Assembly: GCA_965372365.1 (NCBI GenBank)
Contig: CBDVCA010000002.1
Coordinates: 936 to 64,935, forward strand
DNA length: 64,000 nucleotides
Origin: an uncultured bacterium
GTDB lineage: Bacteria > Planctomycetota > Phycisphaerae > SM23-33 > FEN-1343
Direction: 5' to 3'
A program made the translations under genes and the position numbers. Below, piece by piece: positions 123 to 59,216 of the stretch. Each line of letters begins with the position of its first letter. The first letter of the stretch is position 1. A model generated the notes under the pieces. That model had not been told where the DNA came from. It did not search any database and was given only the letters and a program-made list of their open reading frames with translations.

Positions 123-2837
123 TCACATCATGGCCTTGTCCACGTCAAGGGTCACGAGTTGGAGCAGATCCTCATCGCTCATTTCGGTCAGCAGCTTCTG
201 GACTCCGCCTTCGAGGACGTCGCGGGCCAGTTGCTGCTTTTCCTCGATCATGGCGTCGATCTTTTCCTCGATCGTGCCGCGGCAGACGAACTTGTGCACC
301 AGGACGTTCTTCTCTTGTCCGATGCGGAATGCGCGGTCGGTGGCCTGATTCTCCACGGCGGGGTTCCACCAGCGGTCGAAGTGGATCACGTGCGAAGCGG
401 CCGTCAGGTTGAGGCCGGTTCCGCCGGCCTTCAGGGACAGTACGAAAAACGGCGGTCCGTCTTCCTGCTGGAACTGGTCCACCAGCGTCTTTCGGCGAGC
501 CACCGCCGTGCCCCCGTGCAAAATGAGCCCCTGTCGGCCGAATATATCCGACAGAAGCGCCTGCAGCGGGTCGGCGATTTCTCGGAACTGCGTGAAGATG
601 AGCGCCTTGTTCTGCCGGGACGCCAACTCCCGGCATATCTCAGCGAGGCGGGCGAACTTGCCGCTGGCGCTGGGGGCGTAGACGCCGTCGCCGAGCAACT
701 GGCTGGGATGGTTGCATATCTGCTTGAACCGCATGATGTACGACAATACCAGCCCGCGGCGCTGGATCCCGTCCAGTCCCTCCATCTGGTCGGCCATCTG
801 GCGGACGGTCTTGGCGTACAACGCGGCTTGCGGTTTGGCCAACCCGCAAAACGCGCGGACTTCGGTCTTGTCGGGCAAGTCGTCGATGACGCTGCGGTCG
901 GTCTTGAGCCGGCGGAGAATGTACGGCGCCACCAGATTGCGTAGCGGCGCGTAGCGCTCGGTCTCGCGGCTTTCCATCGCCTTGACGAACTGCTTGAACT
1001 TGCGGGCCGAGCCCAGCAGGCCGGGACACAGAAAGTCGAACATCGACCACAGGTCGCCCAAGCGGTTTTCCACCGGCGTGCCGGTCAGGGCGATTCGCGT
1101 GCGACTCTTGATCTTCTTGACGGCGCGAGACTGCCGCGTCGACGGGTTCTTGATCGCCTGAGCCTCGTCCAGAACGACCATACCCCACTGGACGTCGAGC
1201 AGCCAATCGCGGCGCAGCAACATGCCGTAGGTGGTCAGCACCGCATCCACGCCGTCGAGCTCGGCCGCCGGGTTCCGGGCCAGGGCGGCCAATTCGTCCG
1301 CGTCGGCTTCGGCCGGATGGACGAAACGCGAGGTCAGGTCAGGAGCGAACCGGGCCATCTCGGATTTCCAGTTCGCCAGCAGCGACGCCGGCAGAACCAG
1401 CAGGGCGGGTTCCCGCACGCGACCGGCTCGTTTCATCGCCAGCATCAGCGAGAGCACCTGGATCGTCTTCCCTAAGCCCATGTCGTCGGCCAGGCAGGCG
1501 CCCAATTGCAGGTTCGACATCAGCCACAGCCAACTCAGCCCCGCCTGCTGATACGGCCGCAACGTCGCCTTGAGCGCCTTGCCCGGATGGACATGCTTGA
1601 GATTCTCCGGGTCACGCAAGTCGGTCAGCGTCTCCCGCAACCACTCGCCTGGCTGGACGAAGGCCCACCGGTGGTCCTGGTCGTCGTCGTCGCTGTCGCC
1701 GTCGAGATCCGCCGGCGCCCCGGCCAGCAGTCGCATGCCCTCGATGAACGACACGCCGTCGGCTCCGGCTTCGGCGGCGACACCCCGCCAGTGGTCCAGG
1801 GCGTCGGCGAGCTTGTCGCGGTCGACCTCCACCCATTGCCCCCTCAGCATGACCAGTCCCTCGTCGGCGGCCATCAGCTCATCCCACTCGGCTCGGCTGA
1901 GTTTCTGGTCGCCAAGGGCCAAGGCGACGTCGAAGTCCAGCATCGCATCGGCGCCGAGGGCGTTTCGCTTGTTCTGGCCGATCGTGACGGCCACGCGGGC
2001 GCGCGGGCGCTTTCGCCACCAGTCGGGCAGCCGCACCACGATGCCGCAGTCTTCGAACAGGGCGACTTCCTTGAGGAATCGGTGGGCCTCGGCGGGCGTC
2101 CAAGCCAGCGGATGGAATACATCGCCGGAGTCCACGAGCTCTTTGACCAGCGGGCTGGACTGCGAAGCCAGTTGGACCGGCGAGAGCAGGCGGATCAGGG
2201 CCTTGCGGTTGCGGGCGCCGGCGTATTCCTGGATGGCTTTGTTCAGCGGCTGGTATTGCACGCGTCCGGCCCGGGACAGGCCAGGGGCGTACGTGGCCAT
2301 GAAGGCGAAGGGGTAGTCCTTGTCCCGCTTGTTCTCGGCCAAGTGGAAACACACGCGTCCCACCTGACGCCACTGCGGGGCGTGCTTGGCGAGGAAGGCC
2401 GACAGCCCCCCGGCGGTCGCGGCGACTTGGTCGCGAACCCATTGGTCCAAGGCTCGCCACAGGCCGCAAAACACCTCGGCGGTGAGATACTCGGCCCCCT
2501 GTATGGGCGGTGCGCTGAGCAATAAAGTGGCCGTCCGCGCCGGCGCCAGCGGCGCGGCCGGCTCGATATCGGTCTCGGCGGTCCGCGGCGTATGGCACAG
2601 TTCGGTCAGGTAGTGTCCGGCGAACCCTCGCCAGAATGCCAGCGACGGCGCCAACCCGGCCGCCAGGCCCCCGGCGGCGAGATGGAACAAACCCTCCCCT
2701 GAGCCGGCGGCGAACGCTTTGACCAACCGCCGGACAGCGGGGCTATCCGGCTCCGATGGCGGCCCGCTGCACACCAGCCGCAGGCGGCCGGACGGGGAAA
2801 CTGCCGTGTCGTAACTCATCATGGCTCTATTCGTCAA
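123..2837 (-). CDS. SNF2/RapA-like superfamily-2 helicase (904 aa)
   Basis: Uninterrupted 904-aa ORF. Helicase motif I LADDMGLGKT, motif II DEAQAIKN, motif III TGTPVENRLGDLWS. C-terminal helicase domain LKAGGTGLNLT ... HFDRWWNPAVENQATDRAFRIGQ. Long non-catalytic N-terminal region typical of bacterial SNF2 proteins. Stop TGA at 123-125. Confidence 0.85.
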   Translation of the reverse strand: MTNRAMMSYDTAVSPSGRLRLVCSGPPSEPDSPAVRRLVKAFAAGSGEGLFHLAAGGLAAGLAPSLAFWRGFAGHYLTELCHTPRTAETDIEPAAPLAPARTATLLLSAPPIQGAEYLTAEVFCGLWRALDQWVRDQVAATAGGLSAFLAKHAPQWRQVGRVCFHLAENKRDKDYPFAFMATYAPGLSRAGRVQYQPLNKAIQEYAGARNRKALIRLLSPVQLASQSSPLVKELVDSGDVFHPLAWTPAEAHRFLKEVALFEDCGIVVRLPDWWRKRPRARVAVTIGQNKRNALGADAMLDFDVALALGDQKLSRAEWDELMAADEGLVMLRGQWVEVDRDKLADALDHWRGVAAEAGADGVSFIEGMRLLAGAPADLDGDSDDDDQDHRWAFVQPGEWLRETLTDLRDPENLKHVHPGKALKATLRPYQQAGLSWLWLMSNLQLGACLADDMGLGKTIQVLSLMLAMKRAGRVREPALLVLPASLLANWKSEMARFAPDLTSRFVHPAEADADELAALARNPAAELDGVDAVLTTYGMLLRRDWLLDVQWGMVVLDEAQAIKNPSTRQSRAVKKIKSRTRIALTGTPVENRLGDLWSMFDFLCPGLLGSARKFKQFVKAMESRETERYAPLRNLVAPYILRRLKTDRSVIDDLPDKTEVRAFCGLAKPQAALYAKTVRQMADQMEGLDGIQRRGLVLSYIMRFKQICNHPSQLLGDGVYAPSASGKFARLAEICRELASRQNKALIFTQFREIADPLQALLSDIFGRQGLILHGGTAVARRKTLVDQFQQEDGPPFFVLSLKAGGTGLNLTAASHVIHFDRWWNPAVENQATDRAFRIGQEKNVLVHKFVCRGTIEEKIDAMIEEKQQLARDVLEGGVQKLLTEMSDEDLLQLVTLDVDKAMM

Positions 2838-3050: not shown

Positions 3051-4244
3051 GTGGGGCGGGTTCATTGCAGCCCAGTGGGTCAATTGTGTCGTAATGGGGT
3101 GAAGCTGATGGGTCATGGACGACATAGCGATCGTCGGAATCTGCGGCGTGACAAGGGGGCAGAAGGTAAGTTGTGGATGGGTGGGGGATTACGAGCTGAG
3201 GCGTGTCCTGTTTCAAGCCCGGAAACTCTCCGGACGGGCCTGGGCGTGTCCCGAAATCGACAGGTGCGGCTCGATCGTCGGGCGAAGATCCTTGCGGGGA
3301 TTCGCGACCATATCTCCATCGCCCGGCCGGGGCAGTGGTCAAAGAACGTCTTCATGTTGCCGGGTGTCCTGTTGGGGACGCTGGCCTGCCACGGCGATCC
3401 GAATCTCGGGGTGCTGAACGGGGCAACTGTGGGGTGGGTCGCATTGGGTGTGCTGTCGACCTGTCTGGTCTGTTCGTCCAATTACACGCTCAATGAGATT
3501 CTGGACGCCTCCAGCGACCGCCATCATCCTCTCAAACGCAACCGTCCCGTCGCCGCCGGTCGAATCCGACTTCCGCTGGCGTACGCCCAGTGGCTCCTGC
3601 TGGGGATGGGCGGGCTTGCAGCGGCGTGGTGGATCGGGCGACCGTATTTCTACGCCCTGTCGGCCCTGTTCGTGATGGGCGTCGTCTACAATTCTCCCCC
3701 CATTCGATCCAAGGAATGTCCCTATATGGACGTCCTGTCAGAGTCGGTCAACAATCCGCTCCGACTGCTGCTGGGTTGGTACGCCGTTGGTTGTCCGCTG
3801 ATCCCCCCGGCCTCGCTGCTTTTGTCGTATTGGATGCTCGGTGCGTTTTTCATGGCGGTGAAGCGGTTCGCCGAACTGCGACACATCGGCGACCCCGAGA
3901 CGGCCGCGGCCTATCGATCGTCCTTCGCCTACTACACCCAGGAACGACTGTTGATCAGCATCGTGTTCTACGCCACGGCGTTCGCCCTCTTCGCCGGCAT
4001 ATTCCTTGTCCGCTATCAGGTGGAGTTGATCCTTGCCGCGCCGTTCCTGGCCGGGTTCATGGGCCTGTACATGCGTATTGGATTCCTGCCCGACAGTCCC
4101 GCCCAGCGACCGGAGTACTTGTACCGCCAGAAGCACCTCATGGCCTATGGGCTGCTGACGTCGGTTGTCCTGGTCGCCTGTTGCCTCATCCGCCTGCCCT
4201 GGCTGCAGCACCTGGTCCGGCCGACCGTTCCCAAGGGATTTTAG
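3051..4244 (+). CDS. UbiA-superfamily polyprenyl-phosphate transferase, decaprenyl-phosphate phosphoribosyltransferase (DPPR synthase)-like
   Basis: Motif NYTLNEILDASSDRHHPLKRNRPVAAGRI matches N-x3-D-x3-D ... RP of the UbiA family, in the form seen in DPPR synthases. N-proximal ARPGQWSKNVF motif. About 8 hydrophobic helices. The ORF as given starts at GTG 3051. A protein of family-typical size (~300 aa) would start nearer 3240-3270, so the start is uncertain. Stop TAG at 4242-4244 overlaps the convergent stop of the next gene (TTAG). Confidence 0.7.
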   Translation: MGRVHCSPVGQLCRNGVKLMGHGRHSDRRNLRRDKGAEGKLWMGGGLRAEACPVSSPETLRTGLGVSRNRQVRLDRRAKILAGIRDHISIARPGQWSKNVFMLPGVLLGTLACHGDPNLGVLNGATVGWVALGVLSTCLVCSSNYTLNEILDASSDRHHPLKRNRPVAAGRIRLPLAYAQWLLLGMGGLAAAWWIGRPYFYALSALFVMGVVYNSPPIRSKECPYMDVLSESVNNPLRLLLGWYAVGCPLIPPASLLLSYWMLGAFFMAVKRFAELRHIGDPETAAAYRSSFAYYTQERLLISIVFYATAFALFAGIFLVRYQVELILAAPFLAGFMGLYMRIGFLPDSPAQRPEYLYRQKHLMAYGLLTSVVLVACCLIRLPWLQHLVRPTVPKGF

Positions 4245-5698
4245 CGCTCTGTTCCGGGGACCGAGTGCCAGTCGGCGACGGTGTCAGTATGACGTGGAAT
4301 CGAAAGCACCAGCACCAACAGCAGCAGTACGGCGAGCGTCTGAGGCTTGTAGGAGTGTGCGACGGTCCACAGCGTCTTGCCGAGCAGTTCCTTCTGAGGC
4401 GCGAGGACGAATAGCGCCGCTGCGCCCAGGGCGATTTTCCGCCATAGTGGTTGCGGCCGGGTCAGCGTGTCACGCATGATCAGAAGCGCCGCCGGAACGC
4501 ACAGCACGAGGTGCTGGCCCCAACAGTAGGGAGATACGATCGCCATCACCATCATCGCGGCCGCCCATTCGGGGGGCAGATCGGCTGGGGCGGTCCGCCG
4601 ACCCCACTTGCGGCGGAATCGAATGGCCAGCGTCAGGCCCAGCAGGGCCGTCAGTCCCGCGGCGATAAGGTTTACGGCGCCATCGGGCAGATCCAGGAAC
4701 TGTACGAACGCCCAGTGCGGCCGGGCGTCGGGGGGCGTGGGCTCGCCTTTGACGACGTCATCGGGATGGGGTACGAACAGTTCGCTGCCGGGGGCGCCGT
4801 CCGGGCGGTAGGTTTGCAGGTACCGGCAGATCGCCAGTTTCAGGCATCGGTTCTGGTGCCTGGCGGGATCGATGCCGTTGGCGGTGGGATGCCCACGAGG
4901 GGCTTGGATGTCTTTGCGAATCTCGGCGCCAAAGATGCGGTGGGCCGCGATGGTCTTGGTCCATCCCAATCCGACCATTGGCGCCGCGACGTTCAACGCC
5001 ACGATGAACGCCGCCATCCATGCGGCCTCTCGCCAGCGGCGTTTGTAGAGCATCAGTGGAAGGAAGAGTACGGGGGTGAGTTTCCAGGTGGCGGCCATCG
5101 CGAGCATGAAGCCGGCGAGAACCGAACGCCGTCTCATGGTCCACCAGGCCGCGGCGGTCAGCATCGCGACCAGAATCAGGTGCAGGCCCGCGTCGTCGAG
5201 GTCTCGCGTGATCCACGGCAGCGTCAGGCCGACGGCGAAGGCGCCGGCCGCGAAGGCGATGGGTTTGTCCATTGTCGCCCCCTTGTGGCCAACCGTCCCG
5301 GCCATGCGACTCCACATCCGTAGCGACAACAGGAGCAATCCCACCGACAGCGCCCAGCAGAGGCCGCGTGTGATACGGTACGAGATCGGTCCGGACGTAT
5401 GATCGATCTCCAAAGCTTCGTCGGCCTCGCCGGTAAGGACCGACAAGGCGCCGAGCGGCGCATTGAGCAGCAGTCGACCGGGCGGATAGTGATGGAGCGT
5501 CGGCGGGCGGTCCGGCGTGAGGTAGGGCTTGCCCTGAATGAAGCCGATCCCCACCTTGAAGTGGAGCAGGAAGTCATTGTGCTTGCGTAGCACGCCGTTG
5601 ACGAACCAGACGCCGAGCACAATCATGAACAGAACCCATGCTGTCCGTCGGAAGATCTTGTTGACGTACCACGCGTGGAACGGCGCCGTGTTCTTCAT
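4241..5698 (-). CDS. Polytopic (~11 TM) membrane protein, putative GT-C-fold glycosyltransferase (DUF2029/GT87-like)
   Basis: ORF runs 4241..5761 (506 aa) with about 11 hydrophobic helices. Function is inferred from topology and from adjacency to a DPPR-synthase-like gene. The upstream ATG at 5761 directly abuts a GC hairpin. The internal start at 5698 (MKNTAPFHAWYV...) is preferred because it is preceded by GGGGAGA 7 nt upstream. Confidence 0.5.
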   Translation of the reverse strand: MKNTAPFHAWYVNKIFRRTAWVLFMIVLGVWFVNGVLRKHNDFLLHFKVGIGFIQGKPYLTPDRPPTLHHYPPGRLLLNAPLGALSVLTGEADEALEIDHTSGPISYRITRGLCWALSVGLLLLSLRMWSRMAGTVGHKGATMDKPIAFAAGAFAVGLTLPWITRDLDDAGLHLILVAMLTAAAWWTMRRRSVLAGFMLAMAATWKLTPVLFLPLMLYKRRWREAAWMAAFIVALNVAAPMVGLGWTKTIAAHRIFGAEIRKDIQAPRGHPTANGIDPARHQNRCLKLAICRYLQTYRPDGAPGSELFVPHPDDVVKGEPTPPDARPHWAFVQFLDLPDGAVNLIAAGLTALLGLTLAIRFRRKWGRRTAPADLPPEWAAAMMVMAIVSPYCWGQHLVLCVPAALLIMRDTLTRPQPLWRKIALGAAALFVLAPQKELLGKTLWTVAHSYKPQTLAVLLLLVLVLSIPRHTDTVADWHSVPGTER

Positions 5699-5761
5699 GA
5701 TCGCATCTCCCCGATTGTGGCCTTCCCCGTATTTCCTCGGCCGATCGGCATAATAGAGCAT

Positions 5762-5790
5762 CGGGGGCAGGTATTCAATACCCGCCCCCG
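5762..5790 (-). terminator. GC-rich stem-loop (about 12-14 bp stem) 40 nt downstream of the giant-gene stop; candidate intrinsic terminator or attenuator
   Basis: On the mRNA strand: CGGGGGCGGGUAUUGAAUACCUGCCCCCG, a near-perfect palindrome, followed by a U-containing tract (AUGCUCUAUUAU). Confidence 0.45.
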
Positions 5791-5828
5791 ATGGGATTCG
5801 CTATGACGATAGAGCTGGACGGGACCTA

Positions 5829-8800
5829 TCAGGGCATTGGAATATTCAGCCCCGTACCGCTCAGTGCGTCGAAGCTGTCGCCTGTCCACGCCGATGGGTA
5901 GCGGCGAGTCCAAGACTGCAGTTTCGGTTGATGCAATCGTCGAACGCGTCTGCGGTTCTCCAGTATGCTCGGGCGACGGTTGGCGGCTTGGACGGGGCCG
6001 ACGTCGGTTGTCTGGGCCTGTTCGGCGGCCAGCAGATCAACCGAATCGCCCAGAACCTTGGCCGGAGGAGCCATCATGGTCCCGAAGTTCTGTTTGAGAA
6101 GGACGAAGTCGTCAAGGTCAACTTTCTGATTGCCGTCGAAATCGCCTTGAGCCCAATTGGAGCCGGTCCCGAAGTTCCGCTTCAAGATGACGAAATCGTC
6201 CAAGTCGACGTCGCCGTCGGTATCGGCATCACCGGCCGTGGCCACGAGGATCTGCGCGGCGTAGTCGTCGCCACCGACGCCGTCGCCGTCGCCATCGAGC
6301 AGGTTCCCGGTCTCATCGGAGACACCCGCGGCGGCGAGGGTGATCGTGTAGTATCCGGCCTGCACGCCAAGGGACGACAGGTCCCACGTTGCGGTGTTGT
6401 TCTGACTGTCGTAGGTCAGGTCGCCCGGCGTCAAGCCCGACAGGTCCACCGGGGTGGAGGTGGTGTCGTTGTGGATCGACAGGTCGCCCACGTCGATCGA
6501 GGCCGAGACGTCCTCGTCGAAGGTGAAGGCCATGCTGGTCAACTCGCCCGGTCGGTCGAGCCCGCCGTTGCGGATCGTGTCGACCACCGTCGGCGACTGC
6601 TGGTCGCTCGGATCGACCATCACATCGAGCGACGCGGCTGCGGTTTCGACTGCATCCTCGGGCACGAAGACCTGCACCGTGTAGACGCCCGGCTCGGCCC
6701 ACGTGTGCGTGACCTGCACCTCGGCCAATACTCTCGGCCCAGGCCCGAACGGCCGGCCGTAATGGACGATCACCGAGCCGGGGGTGTCGAGCCCGTCAGC
6801 GGGGAGCCCGACGGCGACGTCATCGATCCCGTCGCCGTTGGCGTCGGCGCCGCCGGCGAGGAGATGGGTGGAGATAAGCGGCGTCCGCGTCAACTGGGCG
6901 GGGCCCATCTGGAACGGCGTGGTGTCCAGGCCGTCGCCGGAGCCAAGGTAGAGCAGCGTGATGCTGTCGCCGCCGGGCTCGTTGGCCGCGACGAGCAGGT
7001 CACCGAGGCCATCGGCGTTGAAATCTCCAGCCGAGGCCACCTGTCGGCCGAAGTAATTCGCGCCTTCGGGGCCGGTCAGCAGCAGGGGCTGCGGGTCCAG
7101 GCCGCCGGCGGAGCCGAAGTACACAAGAACCGTTCCGTCGCCAGGGGCGCCCAGTGCGACGTCGTCAAGCCCGTCGCCGTTGAGGTCGCCGAGGCCGGCG
7201 ACGCTCGCTCCGAGCATGACCGAGTCGGCCGAGCCCTCGAACATCTCGATCGGCCCGGTCAGCGAAGTGTTCGTTCCGGCGAACAGGCGGACAACGCCTG
7301 TGTGGACGCCGTCGCCGGCAGCCTCCAGCGGGGCTCCGATCAACACATCGTCGCGGCCGTCGCCGTCGACGTCGCCGGCGGCGCCGAGAGCGTACCCGAG
7401 GGCGCCGTTGGCTTGGTCGCCGGTGTAGGTCCAGGCCGGTTCGGTTGACAGGCCTGTGGCGCTACCGAGGAACAACTGAACGCGTCCGGCGCCGGCGATC
7501 TCGATGAGCGTATCGCCGACGATGATCTCGGTGGCGGCGTTCGGGTCCGAGACAAGTACGTCGTCGAACCCGTCGTTGTTGACGTCGCCGGCTCCTGCGA
7601 CCACCGTGGCGTTTTCGGCGTAGATTCCGTCGGTCAGCATCGGCTGGCCCAACGGCGAGCCGAACAGTATGAACACTTGGCCCTGTACCTGGACTTCGGT
7701 CATGCCCACTGTGCCGTCGGGGTAGACGATCGGTACGAGCCGGTAGAGGCGATGGCCGGGCGCCGAGATGGCGACGTCGCCGATTCCGTCGTTATTGACG
7801 TCGCCGGCCGCGGCCACCATTCGCCCGAACTGGGCGTTGTCCTGTGAGCCGTAGAAGGTGAAGGGCTCCGAGACGAATCCTTCGGTGGAACCGGCGTAGA
7901 TCTGCACTCGGCCGGCGTTGATGGAGTCTCCGTCGTCGTATCCGCCTTCGCCCACGATGAGGTCGGCCAGACCGTCGCCGGTGACGTCGACCAAGGCGAC
8001 CGACTGTCCGAATCGGCTGCCGATCCGGTCGGTAGTGATCATGTCCGACGGCCCCGCGAGCATCTCGGTCGGCGCCGGCAGGATCGGGACGCTGAGCGTT
8101 TCGGACGCTCCGTCTCCGTAGTTCACGGTTACGTCCAGGTCGCCGTCAGGATCGAATCGGCCGGTCGTGTCGGTGATGGTGATCGTGAACGTGACCTCCT
8201 CGCCATCGACGATGACTTCGCTGTCCGGCAGGATCTCGATATCCAACGTGTCGCCGGGGTTGATCAGGGCTACCGGCGATTGGATGTCGATACCGACCAA
8301 CTGGCCAACCACCACGTCGGTCAGCGTCAGGGCGCCGCCGGCTTGCAGCGACAGCATGCTCGAGTAGCGGTCGGTCAGCAGTTCCACGCTGCCGGCGATG
8401 ATGTCGCCGGGGGAGGTGACCAGGAGACTGCCGTCGGCCACAATCACGTTGGCCAACTCGACCGAGCCGACCGCGTCGATTTGCAGATCCCCGCGGCCGC
8501 GGATGTCGGCGTCGACGATGCCGACGTCGGTTCGCAGTACGACCCCGGTGTCGGAGGTTATGGTCAGCCGCTCGCCGCGAATCAACGCTTGGTCGCCGCC
8601 GAGGATGGTCTGGGCGGTCATACTGAGATTCAAACCTTCCAGGACGGTTCCGCCGTCGGCGTCGGAGGCGAAGCCGTTAAGCATCACGGCGTCGGTTGCG
8701 ATCAGTGTGGTGTTGCCGAACGTGTTATGGAGGGCGCCGTCGCCGACGAAGATGATGTTGCGTCCTTCGAGGGTCAGGTCGCTGTTGTACAGCCAGATGT

Positions 8801-11800
8801 TCGCCTCGATGATGATATCGTGCTCGGCGATGAGGTGCAGCGGCCCGTCGAAGAGCAGATCGTCGGCCGAGTCGATGACGATGCTCAGGCCGTCGGAGGT
8901 GAGCGTTTCGCCTCCGACGTTGGCGTCGGGCAGGTAGGCGGTCAGTCCGGCCGCCATGGTGAGGGTTCCGCCGATGACGGGGCCGTCGCCGGCTTCCATC
9001 GGAGCGATGCTTCCGACGTTCCTCGCCGCATCGAACAACGCGTCGCCGGTGGCGACGATGTCTCCGACCCTCACGTCGCCCAAGCCCGTCGCGACCAGCG
9101 TCAGGTCGCCGGTATCGACGCCGTCGGCGACGATCGTGCCGTCAGAGAAGACGGACAACTCGCCGCCGTGGACGTTTGTGGCGGTGACCGTGAAGGTGTC
9201 GACGCCTTCGGGGGTCACGTTATGCACGACCACACTGCCGGTGGCGTAGGTGTTGGCCATGAAGATTTCGGCCTGCGTGTAGAGCTCCGCTTCGCCGTCG
9301 GCGGCCACCCAGACCAGCGTGGCTTCCAGCAGGCTGCCCGGGGCGCCCATCACGGGGCCGGCGCCCGCCGAGAGCATGACCGTATCGGCTGAGACGTGGC
9401 CGCCGTCGATGATATAGAGCCCACCGTTGGCGGCGATCTCCACGACGCTGTGGCCGCTGATGCGACCGCCGATTTCGACGGCGTCGTAGCTCTCGATGTG
9501 TACGACGGGGGCGAACAGCCTGGCTTCGTCCAGGCCGGAGACGCCGCCGGTTGCCGCGATCATGTCGATTCGCATAGACGCCGAGATGGCGATGTCGGTC
9601 ATGCGAAGGTTGCCGGTGTCGAGTTGCTCGACCGGCAGCAGTCTGTCGCCGTTGTGGTAAACCTCGGTGAGCAGCGTGGGCGGCGTGACGTAGACTTCAT
9701 TCTCGTGCGACTTGGGATCGTCCAAAGCGATCTCGTGGGTCGGGACCTGATTGAAGATCGGCGTGAAGTCCAGGAACGTCACGAGAATGTCGTCACGTTC
9801 AACGACCTCGATCGCCAGGTCGGCGAGCGTTTGTCCGGGGTACAGTACGATGAGCCGGCCGCCGTCTTGGAGTTGGGCGGCGAGGTCGTCCAGGACGGTC
9901 TGGAAGCTGACGACGTGCTCGTCGTCTTCGGCGTCGCTGGTGAAGAACAGATCGGCTGACGCGAATTCCCGAGCGCTGTCGGCTTTGAGGAATCTCGCTC
10001 GGTAGTCGTCGACGGCGAACAGGTTGCTTTCGATCTCCACCTGTCGGGCCACGCCGGTGTCCTGTCGGATGTCGGTCACCGTCTGGGTCTCGACCTCGAC
10101 GAACGTGCGAACGGTGTAGGCGCCGTCGAAGACGTAGAACTCCGGCAGGGCGCCGGTATCCCATTGGTAGAGGGTTTCGAGGTCGTCGGTGGTGTCGCCC
10201 GGCGTGCCTTCGATGTCGTCGAGGCGCCGGTAGTAGTCCTGTCCGCCATCGGAGTACAGTGCGTGCTGGAGGATATAGAACAGGTCGTCGTCGATGGGCT
10301 TGGTTCCGTTGGCGTCGCGGAAGTAGGTTTGACCGGTTACCGAATGCGTGTAGAGGTAGTAGCCGGAGAACTCATCCTGGGCGACACGGTCGCCGGGATC
10401 TTCGGGCTCGTCGCCGTCCTTCAAGTCGAGGTCCAGTTCGACGTTTCCATTCACCAGCATGGCGTCGCCGGTCAGGCCGAGGGCCTCGATGGTGATGGTT
10501 GTGAGTCCGTCGCCGCCGAGCTGCGCCAATCGCAGATCGCTTTCCAACTGCGATTGCAGGACAAGCATGCCTTCCAAGTCGGTCTGGAGTTGTCCCAGGC
10601 GGTCGATGTCGAGCCACACGCCGTCACGATACCCGGCGGCTGTGTACTGGAGGTCGATGCCGTACTGCAGCGATTGCAGTTCGTGGGCCGCGACGAGATA
10701 GTCGACCTGGAGTTGCTGGAGGGTGACCTCGGCGCCGGCCAAGGCGGTGCGCTGGGTTCCCTTGGTCAGCAGGATGTCAGACAAGTTGCCCTGTATCGTG
10801 GTCTCTTGGGTGTCGAGCCCGGCCAGGACGCTGAGGTGGCCGGTGATATCGATGTTGTAGCCATCGGCGTCGTTCTGCAGGTAGCCCAATTGGAACGTGA
10901 AGTCGCCCTCTTGCTGGACCAGTCCGGGCTCGTCGGCCACGGCGCCTTGGAATTGGGCGTTCAGGTGGGTCCGTTGCGTTTGCAGGGGGGCCAGGTTGGT
11001 CTGGATATCGCCCAGATCGTACGGGAGCTCGCCGTGCGCCAGATCGATTTGTCCGACGACATCCCATCGCTCGGTGGACAGGTTCTGTTGCTGCATGTAG
11101 AGGTCGTTCTGCTGTACAGACAGTTGGCCGATCTCGTCCTCGAACATGCCGGTGGCGTCATTGATGAACCCCTCGATGTCCATTCGCTCGGTACTCAGGC
11201 CGCTCAATTGGACGCCGAGTGCGTCGCTTTGGGCCTGTAGCAGCGAGAGTTCGCCGCCCATGAGTTGCTGGGCCGAGGATAGTTCGGTTTCCAGGCTTTC
11301 GGTGGTCGCCGAGACCTGCGAGTACTGGGTCTGCAGCGGGGCCAACAGGTTGCTCAGACGCGTTTCCTCGCCGCCCAGCAATCCGTCGACGGTGTCGACG
11401 ATGCCCGTCACGGTGTTCCGGTCGGCGATGAAGCCGGCCTCGATCGACTGCAGATGCTGGAGGGAGTGGTCGTCGTATCCGATCATGTAGAGTTCGTACT
11501 CGATCACCGACGCCTGATCCTCCAGTTGCGTCTCGTCGGCGTACAGGCCCTGCAGGGTCACGTTGAGATCGTCGCGTTGGGTCATCAAGTTGAGGATGTA
11601 GTTGCGTTCGGTGGTCAGTGAACCCACTTGGCCCTGCCAGTAGCTTCGGTCAGACAACAAGTCGTTTCGCATCTCATCAAGGGCGTAGCGGTCCGTCGGC
11701 AGTTTCGGGTCGTATGCTCCGTCGCCGCCCTTATTCTTCATGAGCTGGTACGCCTGCGACGTTTCCCCGCTCTTGTCCAACTGCGTGAGCAAGACGTCCC

Positions 11801-14800
11801 GTAGCGACTCCAGATCCGATTGGCCGAGCTTAGCGAAGGTCCGCAGGAACAACGCGTCGGAGATCTCGCTCAATTCGATGTCGTACCCATCACCGAACTG
11901 GAGGTGTCCCAGGTTGAAGTACTCCCAGTCGATCGGGAAAATGTGGGCCGGCTTGGTCGGGTTGGGCTTGCCGCCGGAGCCGATTCGCTCCTCGACTTGG
12001 CCCAGCCAATACTGCAGGCGAGGCAGCATCGGGGATCCCTGGTACCCCAGATAGCGGTAGGCGACCTTGTAGAACTGCAGGTCCACTCTGTCGAGATTAT
12101 CGTTAATCGCCGCCACATAGCTATTCGCCTGGCTCAGATCGTATTCGACGGTCTCCAGCGGACGCTGCTGGTTCAGGCTGGCCAAGACCACGTTGAGAGC
12201 CGACTCGTTGTTGTAGATATCCTGCCAGACGATGTTCAGGTTTTCCCAGATCAGGTTCAGGTCCTGGGTCCAGACGATGGCGGTCTGAACGGTGGACAGG
12301 TCGCTCAGGATCGTCGACAGCATATCGAATTGGCCGAGCATGTTGACTTGGGACGTGATCGCCGGCGAGAGGGTCATCTGTTCCACATCGCCCATGTTCC
12401 GCAACTCTTCGTCGAGCACCGACGGGTCGGAGACGCCTCGCCACGTCTGGACGGTCTGGAGCGTTTGCTGGAGCGGGGAGATCTGTTGCCAGAGCCCCGA
12501 CAGTTGGGTTTGCAGGCTGTAGTAGTTCTCGTACCCGTCTACCGCGTTGATTGTCGACTGCATCGACGGGCTGAGCAGGTCGGCGTATTGCGACAGGCCG
12601 CGGACGCCGGAGTCGAGGGCGGAGAAGTCGGTCGTCCACTGCAGCCACTCGATCTCATAGGTCGCCATGCCGACTTGGCCTATGTCGTTGTTGACGATGT
12701 CGATGTCGGACTGAACCACGGTGTAGGTTCGCGTGGTGCTCAGGGCGCTGATGGCGTTCACCAGACTCTGGGTCAGCACGCTGTCGTACGTCGCCAGCGC
12801 CCGGACGCCCGGATCGAGGTCTTCGTACAGTTGCAGGCCCCACAGTATGTAGACGGCGTCGGCGGCGTTCTGCACCAACGTTGCCTGGTCATTGACGATC
12901 TGGATGTCGGTATCCACATTCGCCAACGACCGCACCTGCAGCGCCGCGATGACGTCGCTGACAGTGTCTCCCAGCAGGGCGGCGTGGTCGTCGCCCAGCG
13001 CCAGGAGCAGTTGGTCGATCACGGTGGGGTCGGTGACGCCCAGAAGGATGCTGATATCGTCGATCGCCGCTTCCATCGGGATGATCTGGGCGTCGAGGGC
13101 CGCGATCTGTCCGGGCAGGACGGTGATGAGATTCTGGACGATCGCCAGGTCGTCCTGCACGAAGGCCAGGTCGCCCTGGTTCTCGTAGATCTGCCATTGG
13201 AGTGACGACTCCTGGTTGGCCAGGTCGTACAACTCCATGGAGACGGTGTCGAACCCTGAATCGACGGTGGCCAGGAGGCGTCCGAGTTGATCGTCGCTGA
13301 GGCCCCCGAGATCCAAGGCGTTCAGCGCCCCCAGGTCGAGGGCGGCGGTCTCGGGGTTGATCCCCGTTGGCGGTACGTAGTTGGGGCGGCTGAGGATCTC
13401 GTCGTTGATGCCGGCTCTGACGGCGTCCAGCCCGCCCTGGAAGCTCTGGCTGTCGAGGATTGTCGTCTGGAGGTCGCCCAGTTGCAGCGTCAGGTCGGCG
13501 GTGTCGCCGCCGATCTGCCAGATCTGCGACTGTACGCCGCCCAGGAGGCCCTCGACGCTGCTCAGCAGCGACTGGGTCTGGTTACGCTGCTGGATGAGGG
13601 TCGCGTAGCCGGGCATCTGGTCGATCGTATCGGGCCAGGTGTCCTGCACGGCCAGCATGTCGCCGATATCGGCGAGCTGGAACTGAATCTGCTGGCGATG
13701 GATATCCAGCGGCACCCGGATCAACTGCTGAATCTGGCTGTCGAGAAGCTGGCCGAGGACGACGCCTTGGCCCGCTTCGGTGGTAACGCCCATCGCGGCC
13801 AGTCGCTGCCACGCGGCGACCGTGTCGATCTGATCCTGCAGATTCGCGGCCAGCGCGTCGAGCAACTGCTGCTGCTGGGAGAGCGTCTGGTTGACCACGC
13901 GGAAGCCGGGGAAGTTATCGGCCTCGCCGAAGAGGTTCACGTTGCCGCCGCTGCGGAGAGTGACCTCGCCCAGCGAACTGAGCTTCCCGGCCAGCGTCAA
14001 ACTGCTGGCGGCGTTGACCGACAGACTGGCTGCGTCCAGGTCGACCGGCCGGCCGAGCGAACTGATCGTGCCGAGTGTCTGGAGGTCCAATTCGCCGCCG
14101 GCCCTCACGTGTCCGGTAATCACCAGATCGGCGTCCGGGGTGAGTGTGATCAGTGAGACGCCGGCTCCGGCGACGAGCGAGTTGGCCGCACCGTTGGACT
14201 CGACGTACAAGCTTCCCAGTTGCGACTGGAGCGTCAGTTCGGCGCCCAGACCCGGCGCCAGCGCCCGTCCGACGATCAGCCCGTTCTGAGCGGCCACGAA
14301 GACCGAGCCGAGGTTCGCGTTGACCATCCCGACCCTGACGCCCGGGGACATTTCGCCCACGCCGTCGACGTCGAGAATCTCCACCAGACTGCCGTCGATG
14401 GAGTTGGCGATCGTCACCTCGTTGACGGCCGTCATGAGGCCGGTGATCGAACCTCTGGCCATCGCCATCAGCGTGCCGGCGACGATGCTCGGGGCGGGGC
14501 CTTCTCCGGCTTCGGTGGGGATGGAGAACTCGCTGATCGGCAGGGTGAGCCCGCCTCGAATCTCGCCGTCGGCGAACAGTTGGACGCGGCCGGCGGAACT
14601 GAACTCGCGCGAGAACGTGAACAGATCGCGTGCTTCGCGTTCGACGGTTTCGGGGTCTGCGCCTCCGAAGGAGCCCTCGTACGCCAGGCCCAACAGCCCC
14701 AGCACCTGCGAGTACATCGTGAAGGCGACGCCGGCGGTCATGTAGGCGCCGTTGGCGGTGAAATCGCTGATCGCGATGGCCCGCAAGTCGCCGGGTTCGT

Positions 14801-17800
14801 CTCGCACGTCGTTCTCGAGTTCGACGAAGGTGATGGGCAGGCCGAACTCGTCCAGGATGGGCTCGCCCGCCGAATCCAGCAGCGTCGAGATGAACTCGGC
14901 GGGGATGCCGGCCGGATCGATCTGGCGCAGGAGGCCGTTGAGCATTTCAAGTCGAATCGCCTCGGCTTCGGCGTCGTCGGCGGCGTACACGCCGCCGGTG
15001 ATCGAGCCGACGGTGATCGTCCCGCCGCTGCCGCCGGTGGTCTGGAGGCGAATGACGTTCGCATGAGGCGCGGCGCCCGACGTATTCCAGTCGGTCAGCA
15101 GTGTGACGTTCTGAGCGTCGATGTCGCCTGCGTTGACGATGGTGATATCGCCGTCGAGGATCTGCACGTTCGACAACACCAGGGCGCCGACCGAACTGGT
15201 CACGGTCAGGTCGCCTTCGGTCCCCACGTCGATGTTCAACGTGTTGGCTTCGGTGGTCAGCGTGGTCGGCCCGAAGGTGCGAACGGTCAATTCGTCGGCG
15301 ATGACGGCGCCGTCGGGATGGGTCATCTGGCCGTAGACGGTGAGGAACACGTCGGCGCCGCCGGCGGCCTCGATATCGTGAACTTCGAGCGTGACGCCGG
15401 CGAGGCCGATGGCTTCGGCGATCAGCGTGATGTCGTTATCGTCGGAGCCGCCCAGCGAGCGGATCTCGGTGGCGATGACGCCGCCGCCGATCGCCGAAAT
15501 GGTGATCGGCCCATCGGCGGTCTGAACCTGCGTAAGCGTCAGCCCGGCGGTATCGGGGCCGTCGCCGCCGGCGAGACCGACGATGTCGCTGTCCTTCAGG
15601 ATAATGGCGCCCGGGCCGGTGACGACGGCGCTGACCTCGGCGACGTGGAGGTTCTCCAGCGTGATGCTCCCGCCGGCGATCACGCCCAAGGTGACGGCGA
15701 CGAGGCGTCCGCCGGTGCCGGGGGCGTCGTCTTCGGTCGGCGCCATCTCGGCCGCGGCCTGGATTACTTCGCCGGCCGGGGCCGACAAGGTAATCGTGGC
15801 GGCCTGCAGTTCGGCGTCGATCAGCGAGATGTCCCCGGCGATGCTTCCGGCGGTCAGTGAGATTGTGCTACCGGCGCCCGACGCCAGCAGGAATCCGCCG
15901 ATGGTCGGTCGCAGATCGTCGTCGCCAAACATCGTCTCGGGCGTCGCGGCCGGATCGTGTATGTACACGCCGCCGGCGCCGTCGGAACCGGCCTCGACGG
16001 AAACGCCCTCCAACGCCTCGATGGCGGTGGTGATGATGACGTTGTCGCCGGCGGTGACGGCCACGTTGTCTCGGGCGAAGATGGCCCCGTTGATGACGAT
16101 GGCTCCGTCGGCGTCGATGGAGATGTCCTGGACGGGGTCGCCGTCTTCGGCGGGCGCCTCGGCTCCGAGGGTCCGCAGTTCGGCGGTTTCGCCGACGGTG
16201 ACGGCGCCGGCCGCGGCGTCGATATCGATCGCTTCGTCGGCATGGAGGTGGATCATGTCGTAGACCTTCGGGTCGACGGGCATCGGCTCGCCGACGACGA
16301 TCGATCCGGCGGCCGAGTTCACCGTAATGGCCCCGCCGGGGGCCGAAGCGTCGATGCCGGCCCGAACGAGGATGTCCGTCCCGGCGTTGATGTCGATGTC
16401 GCCGGAGGCCGACAGCGTGTCATGATCGAAGATCGACAGTTCGGTCAGTCCGTCGGCGGCCACGGCGCTGCTGGCGTAGTCCAGTCGCTTCTCGGTGGTC
16501 GCGACGTATCGCCAGTTGGTGATCTGCTCCATCTTGATGACCGGTACGATGCTCTCGATGGTTTCGTAGAGCGGACGCTTGTCGACGATGTCGTGGGCCT
16601 GGGTGAACGCCCGGTAGGTGATGTTCGTCCGCACGTCTTCGATGTCCCGCCAGTCGGTGGTCATCTTGTAGATATAGTCGTGCTGGGTCTCGCCGGTATC
16701 GTAGGCCGGAAGACTCCAATCGGGCTCGCGCTCGTAGACGGCGTGAAGCTCCTCCACGCCGTTGAGATCGTTCCACAGCCCCGAGGTCCACATCTGCAGG
16801 TGGTCTTCGTCGTTGTAGGGGCCTGCGTTGTTGGGCTCGTTCGGGTGGAAATTACTGTAGCCTGTCCAATTGGCGATCCAGCCGTTGGCGACCCGATCCA
16901 TCGACCAGGAGTCGTGGCTGAGGCCGTTGATGTTGTACCCGCCCAGCCAGACCGGCGAATCGATCATGTCGCGGACCAGGTCGTTCTCGGCCTGATCGTT
17001 GATCACCACCAGATGCCAGGGCCAGGAGAAGAGGGCGTTGGCGTCGTCCCAGTCGTACATGTAGTACGACAGGTAGTAATCCCTGCCCTCGAATCGGCGG
17101 ACGTTGGCCACGTCGTCCTCGTGCCTCGCCGAGTCGTTGAGGAGTTGGAGGTTGATGTTGGCCTGCTTGACGGCCACGCCGGCCTCGGCGTCGCCGGGGT
17201 TGATCTGGGCGTACACCCGTCGTCCGAACATGTCTACGTCGTACTCCCAGTTGCCGCCGGTGAACCCCGAGACGTTCCCGTACTCGTCGACGGTTCCGGC
17301 GTCGCCGAGGTTCCAGTCCTCCGGTAGCCAGTCGACTTTCACCGAACTGTCGTAGGTCGTCGCCGGCAGATAACCCAGGCCGTCCATCAGGAGCGTCTGG
17401 ATGATCAGGTTGGTCTCCTCGGAGGCCGCCTCGGTGGAGAAATTCGCGGCGAGCAGTTGGAGCAAGCCCGTGTAGACGCCGGCCACATTTGGCATCGACA
17501 GTTCGTTCGCCGACCGCCCGTCATAGATGCTCCACTGCTCGTAGGCGGTCGGGTCGTCGTCGGTCCAGACGTTGTGCGGGGTGTCCCTGTAGGTTACGAC
17601 CCACCGGCCCGGTTCGTTGTCGTAGTCTTCCAGCACCCACAGGTCACCCTCGACGGGGTTGCTGGGGGCGCCCTCGGTCAGCGAGGACCACTCCTGGATG
17701 TATTCCAGTTGTGCGACTTCGCGAACCTGGCCGACCAACTCGTACTCGTTGATGGTGTTGCCCACGAACTGCAGCTTCTTGGCGTCGGATTCGACGCTGT

Positions 17801-20800
17801 CGGCGCCCAGGGCGGTCACCTCGTACTCGGTCCACCATTGCTCCGGCGCCCGGACGTAGATGTCGGTTCCGTCGTCGAGCGTGTAGGGGTACACGTTCCA
17901 CTGCTGGGTGCTGAGGTCGACTTCCCACAGTTGGGCGGTGGGGATGCCCTGGTAGTTGCGGTTGATCCGCCCGAGGGCGACTTCGGTCCCATAGACCTTC
18001 TCCCATCCGTAGTTGCCGAGGATGGTGTCTTCGCGTTCGAAGAAGCTGGCGATGTAGATGTACGTGCCCGTGGTCTTGGCGGGGTTGCTGTACTCCTCGC
18101 GGTAGTCGCGCCCGGCGATGAAGAAGGTATCCGACCATTCGAGCAGGACGCTCTCGTAGTCTGTGGGGTCGACGCCTTCGAGCAGTTCCTCAACCCTATC
18201 CGACGGCGGCAGCCAGTGGCGGTAGGCGGCCTCGGCGACCGAGTCGTGTTCGATGGGATCATAGTGCTCGTCCCGGTCGAACGGCGTGAACTCCGGGAAC
18301 CAGAAGTCGAAGTACTTCTTGGTGACCGTGTAGCTGTCGGTGTAGATCCTCCAGTTCGGCCCCGCCAGCATCAGCGTCTCCGACGGCGTCGCCTGGAACC
18401 TGCCCTCGACGATCACGCCCGGTACGAACGTTTTGGATCCGACGCCGTCGTCGACCAGCACGCCGGACAGACCCAACGCCGACTGGCCGGCGAAGGCGAA
18501 TTCGCCGGCGGCTTCGGCCATGGCTTCGGCGATCCCCTCAGCGTTCTCCTCGTCATCGTCGGTGGCGAACACCAGTGAAACATTGGTGACCACCGTGACG
18601 CTGTCGTCCTGGGAAAGGTCGAAGATGGACCTGTCGTTGAGCTGCTGGTACACGCCGAGGTCGTCGGCAAGCCTGTGCTGGGTCAACGGATCGTAGGTGT
18701 AGATCGTCTTCTCGAATTCCTGGATGAACTGCACGTCGAAGAGCTTGCGGTAGTTCTTGCCGCCGCCGGCCAGGATGGCGGTGGCCTTCTCGCCGGCGGT
18801 CAACTCGTCCCAGGGCTTGTAGGGCTGTTGGACGTAGGAGCCCTCGATGAGGGCGTGGACGTCGTTGGCCATCATGTCCAGCACATCGCCGTAGGAAGCG
18901 GAGTCCTGGCTTGCGAACAGGTCGATGATCAGCTTTCCGTCGCCGCCTTCGGTGAGCGCCATCGCGCCGCCGTCCTGGAAGATGCCGCCCATTTGCGGAT
19001 CGCGATCATTGCGGAACGAACTGATCGCCTCGTTGACGGTCACGCCTTGGGCGAACGTCGTTCCCGGGTCGATGACCGGACCCTGGTAGTCGGTGACCGC
19101 CCGAATCAGTTCGAACATGTCCGGGTCGATCGGCTCGAATGCCGGTTCGCCGCCAACATCCAGCAGCAGGAACAGGCCGCCGTCGTCGTCGGGCGCCTTG
19201 CCGGGCCAATCGAGATCGTCGATGACGTAGTCGACGCCCGGTACGAAGTACTCGCGGAACTTGTCGGCGGCCGGCACGTTCTCCGACCAGTACCCGTCCT
19301 GGAACAGCCGCACTTCGGCGCTGCCGAACTCGCTGCCGACCTTCACGCTGATCATGTCGGTCTGCTCGGTCGTGATCGTCGGGATGTAGTGCACCACCGG
19401 ACGCTCGATGAAGCTGTCGGCCACACGATTGGAGCCGGTGACCACGTCGATGTAGACCGGCTCGTAGGTTATGTACGCCGGGGCGAACTGCAGGTCGTCG
19501 TTCATCGCGTCGTCGTAGGCCAGCAGCGTCACCTGGCCGGGGGCGTCGACGGTGATGTTTCCCGTCGCGGCCGATTGGAACCCGGCCGCCAATTTGCCTT
19601 CGGCGGCGATGACCACCGAACCGGCCGAATCGACCAGACCGGCGTCGACGTCGATATCCGCACCCGAAAGCACCTCGCCGCGAATCACCACGTGCCGGTT
19701 CGCCTGAAGCGACGCCAACGCCGGGTCGGCTCCGCCGTTGCGTGTTTCGCCTTCGACGGCCACGGTGCCGTAAACGTTAATGTCGTCGCCGATCAGCGAC
19801 ACCTGGCCTTGGGCGGCCACTAGCGCCCGGAAGTAGTACACCTGGCTGCGAGCTACGTAGACGGTTCCGCCGACGTCGGTGGCCGTCAGCGTCGTATGGG
19901 AGTCGGGAGCCCGGGCGATGGTTACACTCTCATCCAACGCCCAGACGTTGGCGCCTGTCACGTTGATTATGTCCTGGGCGTTCACCAGGGCGTCGGTCGT
20001 GATCTCCACGTCCGATAGCGACGTCAGATCGACTTGCCGTACGTCGACGGTCGACTCGCTCGCGCCGCCGTCGAGCTTCACCAGGCCGACCATGCCGTGA
20101 ATCCAGATGTCCTGGTCGCCGGTGACAACGATATGCCCGGCCGGGCCGGTGGTGTTCAGCACGCCGCCGCTGCGGCGGGCGGGCAGGTCGACCATGACCG
20201 GACCGGTCGTCGTCATCAGTTCGGCGATGCTGAGCTGGATCTCGCCGCCTTCGAGGCGATCGGCGCCCGGGACGCGGGCTTCCAGAACGAGGGGATCCTG
20301 CACCACGCGATTCCCGCCGGCGACCGGGGCGTCCAGGTGCGTCAGCGGTACGCCGTCGGCGCCGATAAGCTCGCCGCGGTCGTTGATGAGGTCGCCGGTT
20401 TGATTGATCAGGGCGCCCTGGTCGCTGATGAGATTGCCGTACACATCGGCGCGATAGTCGATTCCCAGGAGGTTCAGGACGGTCCAGTACTCCCCGGCGC
20501 CGTCGTTGAGCAGCGTGCCGGAGCCATTGAGCAGCAGCCCGTTGACGGCGATTAAGTAGCCCTTGGAACTGATCAGATCCAGATTCGTGTCGATCAGGTT
20601 GCCGGCGGCGTCCACGCGGTCGCCGTAGACATTGATCGCGACCCCAAATTCGTCGATGAAGTTGCCGTTGGGGTCGATGAGGTAACCGAACTCATTCATC
20701 AGATCCCCGTCGGCGTTCAGTCGCCGGCCGTCCACGTTGACGACGCGGCCTGCGGCGTCGAGATACTGGCCGATCTCGTCAACCAGGAACCACGCGCCGC

Positions 20801-48277: not shown

Positions 48278-48403
48278 CCATGCGTCGGCGCCGGGGACTC
48301 GCGGCAGTTCCGAGCAAACGTGACTCGAAAGGCGAATTAAGTATGGTGTCCCCGGAACCAGCCGGAACCAGCGATCGGACTCAATTCCAAGCACGCTCTT
48401 GCA

Positions 48404-55611: not shown

Positions 55612-55649
55612 CAGTCACCGTGCTCGATCATCATAGGCCGTTCGTTTTT

Positions 55650-55675
55650 CAATCCGCAATCCGCAATCCGCAATC
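55650..55675. repeat. Heptanucleotide tandem repeat (CAATCCG)x3.7 in the 67-bp spacer between the NuoF-like and GltD-like genes
   Basis: The run caatccgcaatccgcaatccgcaatc is read directly from the sequence. It begins 3 nt past the NuoF-like stop codon. Confidence 0.85.
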
Positions 55676-55678
55676 AAG

Positions 55679-59199: not shown

Positions 59200-59216
59200 C
59201 GCCGAGCGGAGGCGGT

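Follow-up and report, generated by a model that had tools for sequence, protein, structure and literature searches.

A convergent UbiA–GT87 gene pair in a planctomycete genome as the putative core of a pentofuranosylation system

Organisation of the UbiA–GT87 locus

A stretch of 64,000 nucleotides from an uncultured bacterium of the Phycisphaerae (GTDB lineage Planctomycetota; Phycisphaerae; SM23-33; FEN-1343), located at positions 936 to 64,935 of contig CBDVCA010000002.1 in assembly GCA_965372365.1 and hereafter called the window, contains two convergent genes of interest. The first, at 3177..4244 on the plus strand, encodes a UbiA-superfamily protein resembling polyprenyl phosphoribose synthases (PPPRS) and decaprenylphosphoryl-5-phosphoribose (DPPR) synthases, a candidate polyprenyl-phosphate 5-phosphoribosyltransferase according to Pfam, NCBIfam, PDB and the fold of its AlphaFold2 (AF2) model. 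The second, at 4241..5698 on the minus strand, encodes a 485-aa glycosyltransferase of family GT87 and of the GT-C fold class, assigned by Pfam PF09594, an AF2 model and Foldseek. With moderate confidence, the two genes are interpreted here as the core of a system for extracytoplasmic pentofuranosylation, one encoding the donor synthase and the other the transferase.

The open reading frame (ORF) mechanically called for the UbiA-like protein, 3051..4244 on the plus strand, opens with GTG 3051, which is almost certainly too early a start, because the family is typically 310 aa long and the public calls are 355 and 332 aa. The other options are ATG 3177 (public call P0021, 355 aa), GTG 3246, to which the 332-aa member of the public cluster would correspond, and GTG 3264; the conserved core starts at about 3290. 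The mechanical call for the GT87 gene is 4241..5761 on the minus strand, and its start is likely ATG 5698, which is preceded by GGGGAG and yields the 485 aa of public calls P0001 and P0143, while the alternative ATG 5761 falls within the 3' arm of a hairpin. The two genes overlap at their ends by the four nucleotides TTAG, which provide the TAG stop on the plus strand and the TAA stop on the minus strand, and the convergent 4-nt overlap reported in the original prediction, made from the sequence of the window, is thus borne out.

On the minus strand the GT87 gene follows a giant gene of 13,765 aa (5829..47126), which is described as context and is not shown to be part of the system. Its stop at 5829 lies 67 nt from ATG 5761 and 130 nt from ATG 5698, and the coordinates together with RNA folding agree with the earlier description of a glycosyltransferase gene 67-130 nt past the giant gene, on the same strand and with a hairpin in between. 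This hairpin (5793..5759, minus strand), detected by scanning and folding, has a G+C-rich, terminator-like stem of 16 bp, a folding energy of -35.6 kcal/mol and a z-score of -4.83, none of 200 shuffled sequences being as stable, and it is followed by CTCTATTATG. A promoter-like match, TTGAAT-17-TATTAT at 5778..5750, overlaps the hairpin; the number of such matches in the region was no higher than expected by chance. A scan of the whole window against Rfam, covering for example a PRPP (phosphoribosyl pyrophosphate) riboswitch 5' of the UbiA gene, returned no family at threshold.

The UbiA-like and GT87 proteins

The UbiA ORF is matched by Pfam UbiA (PF01040, E 1e-22) and contains, exactly and as NEILDASSDRHHPLKRNRPVAAG, the motif N-x3-D-x3-D-R-x-HP-x-K-x-x-RP by which it had first been linked to DPPR synthases. 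Its best four NCBIfam models are PRK08238 (haloacid dehalogenase (HAD)-UbiA) and three DPPR synthase models, with scores of 70.6-88.9 bits, whereas the models for heme o, chlorophyll, ubiquinone and ether-lipid prenyltransferases reach at most 34 bits; PRK08238 and the DPPR synthase models also rank top for all 32 aligned members of the clade. The best PDB sequence match is 8j8j, Rv3806c of Mycobacterium tuberculosis (26% identity), and a profile of the clade retrieves 8j8j at 2.4e-24, AfUbiA at 2.7e-11, and DGGGP and chlorophyll synthases at about 1e-4. The AF2 model, with a predicted local distance difference test (pLDDT) score of 93.8, has 8j8j as its top Foldseek match (TM-score 0.84, root-mean-square deviation 3.4 Å), the conventional UbiA proteins such as AfUbiA reaching about 0.73 and 6 Å. 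A clustering with quinone or chlorophyll prenyltransferases, the adverse outcome set beforehand, did not occur; the NCBIfam, PDB-profile and fold comparisons agree on the DPPR-synthase type that had been proposed.

Substrate-binding residues were compared through a HMMER alignment to Rv3806c, the columns invariant among 32 clade members, and the roles assigned to the residues of Rv3806c (PMC10994848). All clade members share, without variation, counterparts of R22, K28, Y70, N73, D77, K87, R90, Y138 and K191, and the position of K143 is covered by invariant R144/K146. In Rv3806c, N73 and D77 are Mg2+/ribose ligands, R22, K87, R90 and K143 form the pyrophosphate cluster, K28 and Y70 bind the 5'-phosphate, and K191 is a ligand of the lipid phosphate (PMC10994848). 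The loop motif of the UbiA-like protein reads NEILDASSDRHHPLKRNRP, with D74 of Rv3806c replaced by Glu. The second Asp-rich motif (DxxxD), which UbiA enzymes using prenyl diphosphates need for a second Mg2+ (PMC10994848), is replaced by KRFAEL (KRYAEL in Rv3806c), and the loop contains no invariant DxxxD. By these sequence and model comparisons the protein is placed in the PRPP-dependent polyprenyl-phosphate phosphoribosyltransferase branch, which comprises the Rv3806c and Citrobacter ORF15 types, and the corresponding activity is predicted.

The clade to which the protein belongs is large, with more than 2,800 matches, many of which are 50-65% identical. One member, P0072, is a fusion of an N-terminal HAD hydrolase with a C-terminal UbiA part sharing 58% identity with the window protein. 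It has the same architecture as ORF15 of Citrobacter youngae, for which biochemical work demonstrated a phosphoribose phosphatase and a polyprenyl phosphoribose synthase in one fused protein (PRP-PPPRS; PMC11127046). In three further loci (L008, L009 and L065) a HAD gene adjoins the UbiA gene, and in one additional contig it is close by. A phosphatase partner makes sense only with a product bearing a removable phosphate, such as polyprenyl-phosphate-ribose-5-phosphate, which supports the identity as a phosphoribosyltransferase. In these four contexts the genes are also found beside large polytopic membrane proteins, some of them with weak matches to PMT_2 (GT-C).

The HAD genes of these contexts are often joined or fused to a SAM (S-adenosylmethionine) methyltransferase. 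A HAD and/or SAM methyltransferase gene precedes UbiA at 4189..5748 in L065, where it encodes a HAD-methyltransferase fusion of 519 aa, at 7021..8004 in L009 and at 7275..7997 in L008; in the wider clade it typically overlaps the UbiA gene or is separated from it by 3-4 nt. This arrangement is a hint that the donor made by this very large and uncharacterised family may be a methylated pentofuranose, and the HAD- and methyltransferase-linked clade, with its thousands of metagenomic members, represents a pool of uncharacterised pentofuranose systems.

The membrane protein encoded by the ORF 4241..5761 matches Pfam GT87 (PF09594) with 54.9 bits against a cutoff of 25, and the same domain is carried by 20 of 20 database homologues, while the NCBIfam scan of the protein gave no match. 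The sole hit of a PDB sequence search, TodA, was spurious, and a fold search was used instead. The AF2 model is all-helical (pLDDT 89.6), and Foldseek places PimE (9dm5) first, with E 1e-5, a TM-score of 0.72 and 19% identity, followed by ArnT, ALG6, PIGU, EmbA/B/C, PglB and OST, which together constitute the GT-C_A fold set. PimE is a GT87 polyprenyl-phosphate-mannose:PIM4 (phosphatidylinositol tetramannoside) alpha-1,2-mannosyltransferase (PDB 9dm5) in which D58 is the catalytic base and Y62 its partner (PMC12041525). It shares with the window protein the Pfam family and an invariant Asp after the first transmembrane helix, and differs in its donor, mannose as against the predicted pentofuranose.

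In an alignment of 19 sequences the invariant residues of the GT87 protein include D42, H46, R165, D166, D168, K206, W393 and H396. D42, invariant in all 19, lies at the N-terminus of helix 42-54, directly after the first transmembrane helix (14-38), and the spacing of D42 and H46 equals that of D58 and Y62 in PimE (D-x3-[YH]). From its position and this spacing, in the alignment and in the model, we infer that D42 is equivalent to the catalytic D58, while R165, D166, D168, K206 and W393-x-x-H396 are plausible counterparts of the phosphate-binding residues of PimE. The GT-C-like character originally read from the topology of the protein is thus upheld by its assignment to GT87 with a hidden Markov model (HMM) and by an acidic residue of the first outer loop that does not vary among the relatives. 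The protein is about 100 residues longer than PimE and contains a conserved extra outer loop at about 270-338. It is predicted to use a polyprenyl-phosphate-sugar donor at the outer face of the cytoplasmic membrane; that this sugar is a pentofuranose we infer only from the conserved UbiA neighbour.

At residues 164-173 (about 5180..5209, minus strand) the subclade paired with UbiA, comprising the window protein, P0002 and P0003, reads TRDLDDAGLH, and the other 15 aligned relatives (P0005-P0020) read RDxD[D/E]CGxQ. The substitutions C170A and Q173H are specific to the subclade and lie inside the otherwise invariant motif RDLDDxGLx; they could reflect a switch of donor, which is mentioned as a lead and not as evidence.

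Pairing of the two genes, candidate pathway and alternative explanations

The UbiA–GT87 pair is kept in two relatives of the window locus. In L001 (GT87 72% and UbiA 75% identical) the genes are convergent and overlapping, and their neighbours are radical-SAM genes and a HEPN/nucleotidyltransferase pair to one side, Metallophos and YidC genes to the other. In L006 (GT87 61%, UbiA 68%) both genes are co-directional, in the order UbiA, B12 radical SAM, GT87, B12 radical SAM. No flanking gene is common to the window, L001 and L006, which points to a linkage kept by selection more than to leftover synteny. Since convergent genes cannot be co-transcribed, the case for coupling rests on this conserved linkage. 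In about 12 more distant GT87 loci a GT2 gene stands directly beside the GT87 gene instead, and we read it as a putative Dpm1/GtrB-type polyprenyl-phosphate hexose donor synthase. The simplest reading is that the neighbouring gene supplies the lipid-linked donor and that the window subclade has swapped a hexose for a pentose donor synthase. Within one GT87 clade the neighbour is either GT2 or a PPPRS-type UbiA, and if GT2 is indeed a hexose donor synthase, the donor sugar of the GT-C enzyme could be guessed from the neighbouring gene. Taken together, UbiA and GT87 are probably functionally coupled.

Radical-SAM enzymes are encoded near the pair in L006 (1647..3068 and 4655..6067, of the B12-binding class) and in L001 (4901..9028, of the SPASM and Zn-ribbon classes). 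A role for them in the system, such as modification of the sugar or lipid donor, was considered but not adopted, the classes being different in the two loci and a probe search giving no match in the window.

In the pathway that such a pair could serve, the UbiA-like enzyme would move 5-phosphoribose from PRPP onto polyprenyl phosphate at the cytoplasmic face of the membrane, as its family and residues suggest. A phosphatase would then remove the 5-phosphate and a flippase would turn the resulting polyprenyl-phosphate-ribofuranose outward, both being presumably encoded outside the window, and an epimerase encoded elsewhere could convert this intermediate to the arabinofuranose (Araf) or xylofuranose (Xylf) form. 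Finally, in keeping with its fold, its family and the pairing, the GT87 protein, with invariant Asp42 as catalytic base, would attach the pentofuranose to an acceptor located beyond the cytoplasmic membrane; the acceptor would by default be an envelope glycan or glycolipid.

The default product of a PPPRS-type enzyme is polyprenyl-phosphate-ribofuranose, and this compound, rather than an arabinose donor, is the predicted donor here. Apart from the giant gene, 11 of the larger ORFs, at 48.4-64 kb, were scanned with Pfam and NCBIfam. In ten ORFs of this region Pfam detected no dedicated DprE1-like (FAD/ALO-type) oxidase and no short-chain dehydrogenase (SDR), the only FAD-family matches being weak ones inside a GltD-like oxidoreductase at 54025..55611, and an SDR from a related locus used as query had no match in the window. 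The lipid-linked arabinose of the original prediction is accordingly not sustained, as the window yielded no epimerase gene, whether of the DprE1/DprE2-like, the SDR or any other type, and for the same reason ribofuranose is predicted to be as likely as arabinofuranose.

The pair most likely represents, by analogy, a further member of a pathway kind already described. In the three-component pentofuranosylation systems of C. youngae O1/O2, which likewise act outside the cytoplasm, ORF15 is the PRP-PPPRS, ORF14 a MATE flippase and ORF12 a GT-C enzyme of family GT136 (Kelly et al., PNAS 2024, PMC11127046). As in that system, a UbiA-type PPPRS is encoded together with a GT-C enzyme (in the window, L001 and L006), the N/D-rich motif of loop II (N73, E74, D77, D81) and the R..E motif of loop IV (R197, E200) are kept, and HAD-UbiA fusions of ORF15 architecture occur among the clade members. 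The differences lie in the GT-C family, GT87 here and GT136 there, in the planctomycete host, in the lack from the window of a PRP phosphatase domain or gene, a MATE flippase and an epimerase, and in the arrangement of the genes, which are convergent here and belong to an O-antigen operon in Citrobacter.

The mycobacterial decaprenylphosphoryl arabinose (DPA) pathway, which comprises Rv3806c, Rv3807c, DprE1/DprE2 and the Aft/Emb GT-C enzymes, is similar in that Rv3806c is the closest solved relative of the UbiA-like protein and in that the GT-C partner belongs to a family of mycobacterial origin, GT87, known from PimE; AftC is likewise classified in GT87. It differs from the window pair, which has neither DprE1/DprE2 nor a PAP2 phosphatase nearby and whose UbiA-like protein departs from Rv3806c in the residues and scores given in the next paragraph but one.

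The PRPP-derived pathway has been described for the arabinan of mycobacteria, the pili of Pseudomonas and the O antigens of enterobacteria, and Kelly et al. reported such systems to be widespread in bacteria with unknown glycans (PMC11127046). If the interpretation of the pair given here is correct, this pentofuranose modification pathway exists in planctomycetes in a minimal form of two genes; current concepts would be unchanged, and the published framework would then also cover a new phylum and another GT-C family.

Several observations weigh against this interpretation. The UbiA-like protein remains below every curated equivalog cutoff, with 88.9 against 351 bits and 86.4 against 207 bits, and Q135, Y157 and K208 of Rv3806c, which contact ribose and phosphate, are replaced by Gly, Asn and Ser; of these, Y157 contributes only moderately to activity and is variable in mycobacteria (PMC10994848). 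Because these residues are not kept and no equivalog cutoff is reached, the protein is, by sequence, a distinct subfamily within the phosphoribosyltransferase branch and not an orthologue of Rv3806c. Polyprenyl-phosphate-mannose is the donor of characterised GT87 enzymes such as PimE. The pairing itself occurs in three non-redundant loci only; no UbiA neighbour was found in L066 or L064, which contain relatives of 56% and 50% identity, nor is the pairing present in about 57 more distant GT87 loci; among 53 loci of GTDB species representatives (at most 46% identity), none has a close UbiA neighbour and only L037 a distant one. A metagenome scan with a single protein found nothing, and one with the subclade alignment yielded five extra loci, none of which had a UbiA neighbour. 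The convergent orientation rules out co-transcription, and the pairing could be a recent linkage maintained by descent. Published systems further depend on a phosphatase and a flippase, and on an epimerase where the sugar is not ribofuranose (PMC11127046), and neither a phosphatase (HAD or PAP2), nor a flippase (GtrA, SMR or MATE), nor an epimerase was found in the 64-kb window. Probes taken from related loci, namely HAD, SDR, Metallophos, B12 radical-SAM, GT2 and PMT_2 proteins, had no matches there either.

These observations bear first on the possibility that UbiA and GT87 are functionally independent neighbours, the GT87 enzyme using a hexose donor made elsewhere, for instance polyprenyl-phosphate-mannose, and the UbiA-like enzyme feeding another GT-C. 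Such independence would account for the scarcity of UbiA neighbours among GT87 relatives of 56% identity or less and for the dozen or so loci with an adjoining GT2, as well as for the non-GT87 polytopic membrane proteins, some with weak PMT_2 matches, beside other members of the UbiA clade, and it fits the convergent orientation. It is less easily reconciled with the maintenance of the pair, in two arrangements, at three loci with otherwise unrelated flanks, or with the lack of any other donor synthase (GT2) beside GT87 in the window, L001 and L006, and is regarded as unlikely, though deserving of consideration.

A more specific proposal, contained in the original prediction, was that the pair is a system dedicated to glycosylating the adjacent secreted protein of 13,765 aa. 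Such a system would be analogous to pilA-tfpW of Pseudomonas aeruginosa. Group IV pilin of that organism is glycosylated with D-Araf by PsPA7_6246-6249 and TfpW (bioRxiv 10.1101/2020.04.19.049825). There, too, a lipid-linked pentofuranose made by a PPPRS is used by a GT-C enzyme encoded beside the gene for its protein substrate, and this PPPRS-dependent system is the only precedent for the adjacent-substrate idea. Unlike it, the window has no DprE1/E2 or GtrA-like genes, and the GT87 proteins have no counterpart of the large C-terminal periplasmic domain of TfpW. The placement of the GT87 gene on the same strand, 130 nt 3' of the giant gene, speaks for the proposal. The layout of giant gene, hairpin, GT87 and UbiA recurs elsewhere only in L063, where the hairpin is identical; this is a strain of 98% identity and hence uninformative. 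The giant gene was not found near the pair in L001 or L006, and apart from L063 there was no ORF of more than 2000 aa within 10 kb in the 53 GTDB GT87 loci and the metagenomic loci. Because the adjacency is limited to the window and the 98% strain, the link is not conserved, and the position beside the giant gene appears to be peculiar to this species and not to reflect a functional coupling. Between the two genes lies the strong terminator-like hairpin, and we know of no characterised GT87 enzyme that is a protein glycosyltransferase. With the pair kept in L001 and L006 in the absence of the giant gene, the term 'dedicated' was not upheld, and the proposal is considered improbable. A narrower version, in which the GT87 enzyme would use polyprenyl-phosphate-ribofuranose, with no epimerase, to O-glycosylate the FG-GAP-bearing giant secreted protein, is more doubtful still; if true, it would describe the first GT87 protein glycosylase, decorating a giant surface protein of a planctomycete. 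To our knowledge it would also be the first protein pentofuranosylation system outside Pseudomonas pili.

That the UbiA-like protein is a conventional quinone, heme, chlorophyll or ether-lipid prenyltransferase without a role in sugar metabolism, as superfamily membership, the annotation of some relatives as '4-hydroxybenzoate polyprenyltransferase' and the scores under all DPPR synthase equivalog cutoffs might suggest, is highly improbable, given that the UbiA families other than phosphoribosyltransferases score about 50 bits lower, that the second Asp-rich motif is missing and the PRPP-binding K/R cluster of Rv3806c kept, that HAD phosphatases occur as fusions and neighbours across the clade, and that Rv3806c is the top fold match.

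Other features of the window

The C-terminal 1500 aa of the giant protein contain FG-GAP repeats (Pfam, 1.6e-23) and a weak PKD match, and Asp-rich dockerin-like repeats near its very C-terminus as well as the motif 'EALEPRLMLS' at the N-terminus were noticed by eye, while its first 600 aa match no Pfam family. The roughly 1.3 kb located 5' of the giant gene (47127..48404) contain no convincing ORF, the longest being oddly composed, and no Rfam match at the gathering threshold; they may serve that gene as a long leader or a regulatory region.

On the other side of the pair, a SNF2-family helicase with DUF3670 is encoded at 123..2837 on the minus strand, as identified by Pfam and NCBIfam. It is divergent from the UbiA gene, with an intergenic region of 340-430 nt, and its best NCBIfam model, the SCO1167/SCO6262 family helicase, scores 584 bits, below the cutoff of 1200.

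The DUF116::polyprenyl_synt fusion mentioned in the original prediction does exist, 57 kb away in the same strand block (62546..63985, minus strand; Pfam PF01976 and PF00348). As a source of the carrier lipid, and thus as a part of the system, it was rejected: it is a trans-type enzyme, similar to farnesyl diphosphate (FPP), geranylgeranyl diphosphate (GGPP) and octaprenyl diphosphate synthases, separated from the pair by 57 kb with unrelated redox and transport genes in between, and the carrier lipids of bacterial glycans are made by cis-prenyltransferases. The domain combination is unusual, and its best NCBIfam model is 'family 2 encapsulin cargo polyprenyl transferase' (110 bits against a cutoff of 450).

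The families found in the 11 scanned ORFs are redox, major facilitator superfamily (MFS), PQQ, NHL and polyprenyl_synt, and two of the 11 remain unmatched in both libraries. Encoded by the 11 are, among others, a CxxCxxCC protein, a cluster of NuoE/NuoF/GltD-like Fe-S flavoproteins, a PQQ beta-propeller and an NHL-repeat protein, and the MFS protein, encoded 47 kb from the pair, is the sole transporter in the window. An ORF of at least 1037 aa (1275 aa in the mechanical call) at 49485..52598 on the minus strand has no Pfam or NCBIfam match. The genes at 54025..59927 on the same strand encode a NuoF-like protein and a GltD-like one of the 2Fe-2S/FAD type, a fusion of a membrane Fer4_5 domain with a NuoE-like thioredoxin-type ferredoxin, and a ferredoxin that weakly matches a Rieske-type TAT-signal domain (PF10399), and this run resembles a membrane-linked NADH-dependent or bifurcating oxidoreductase.

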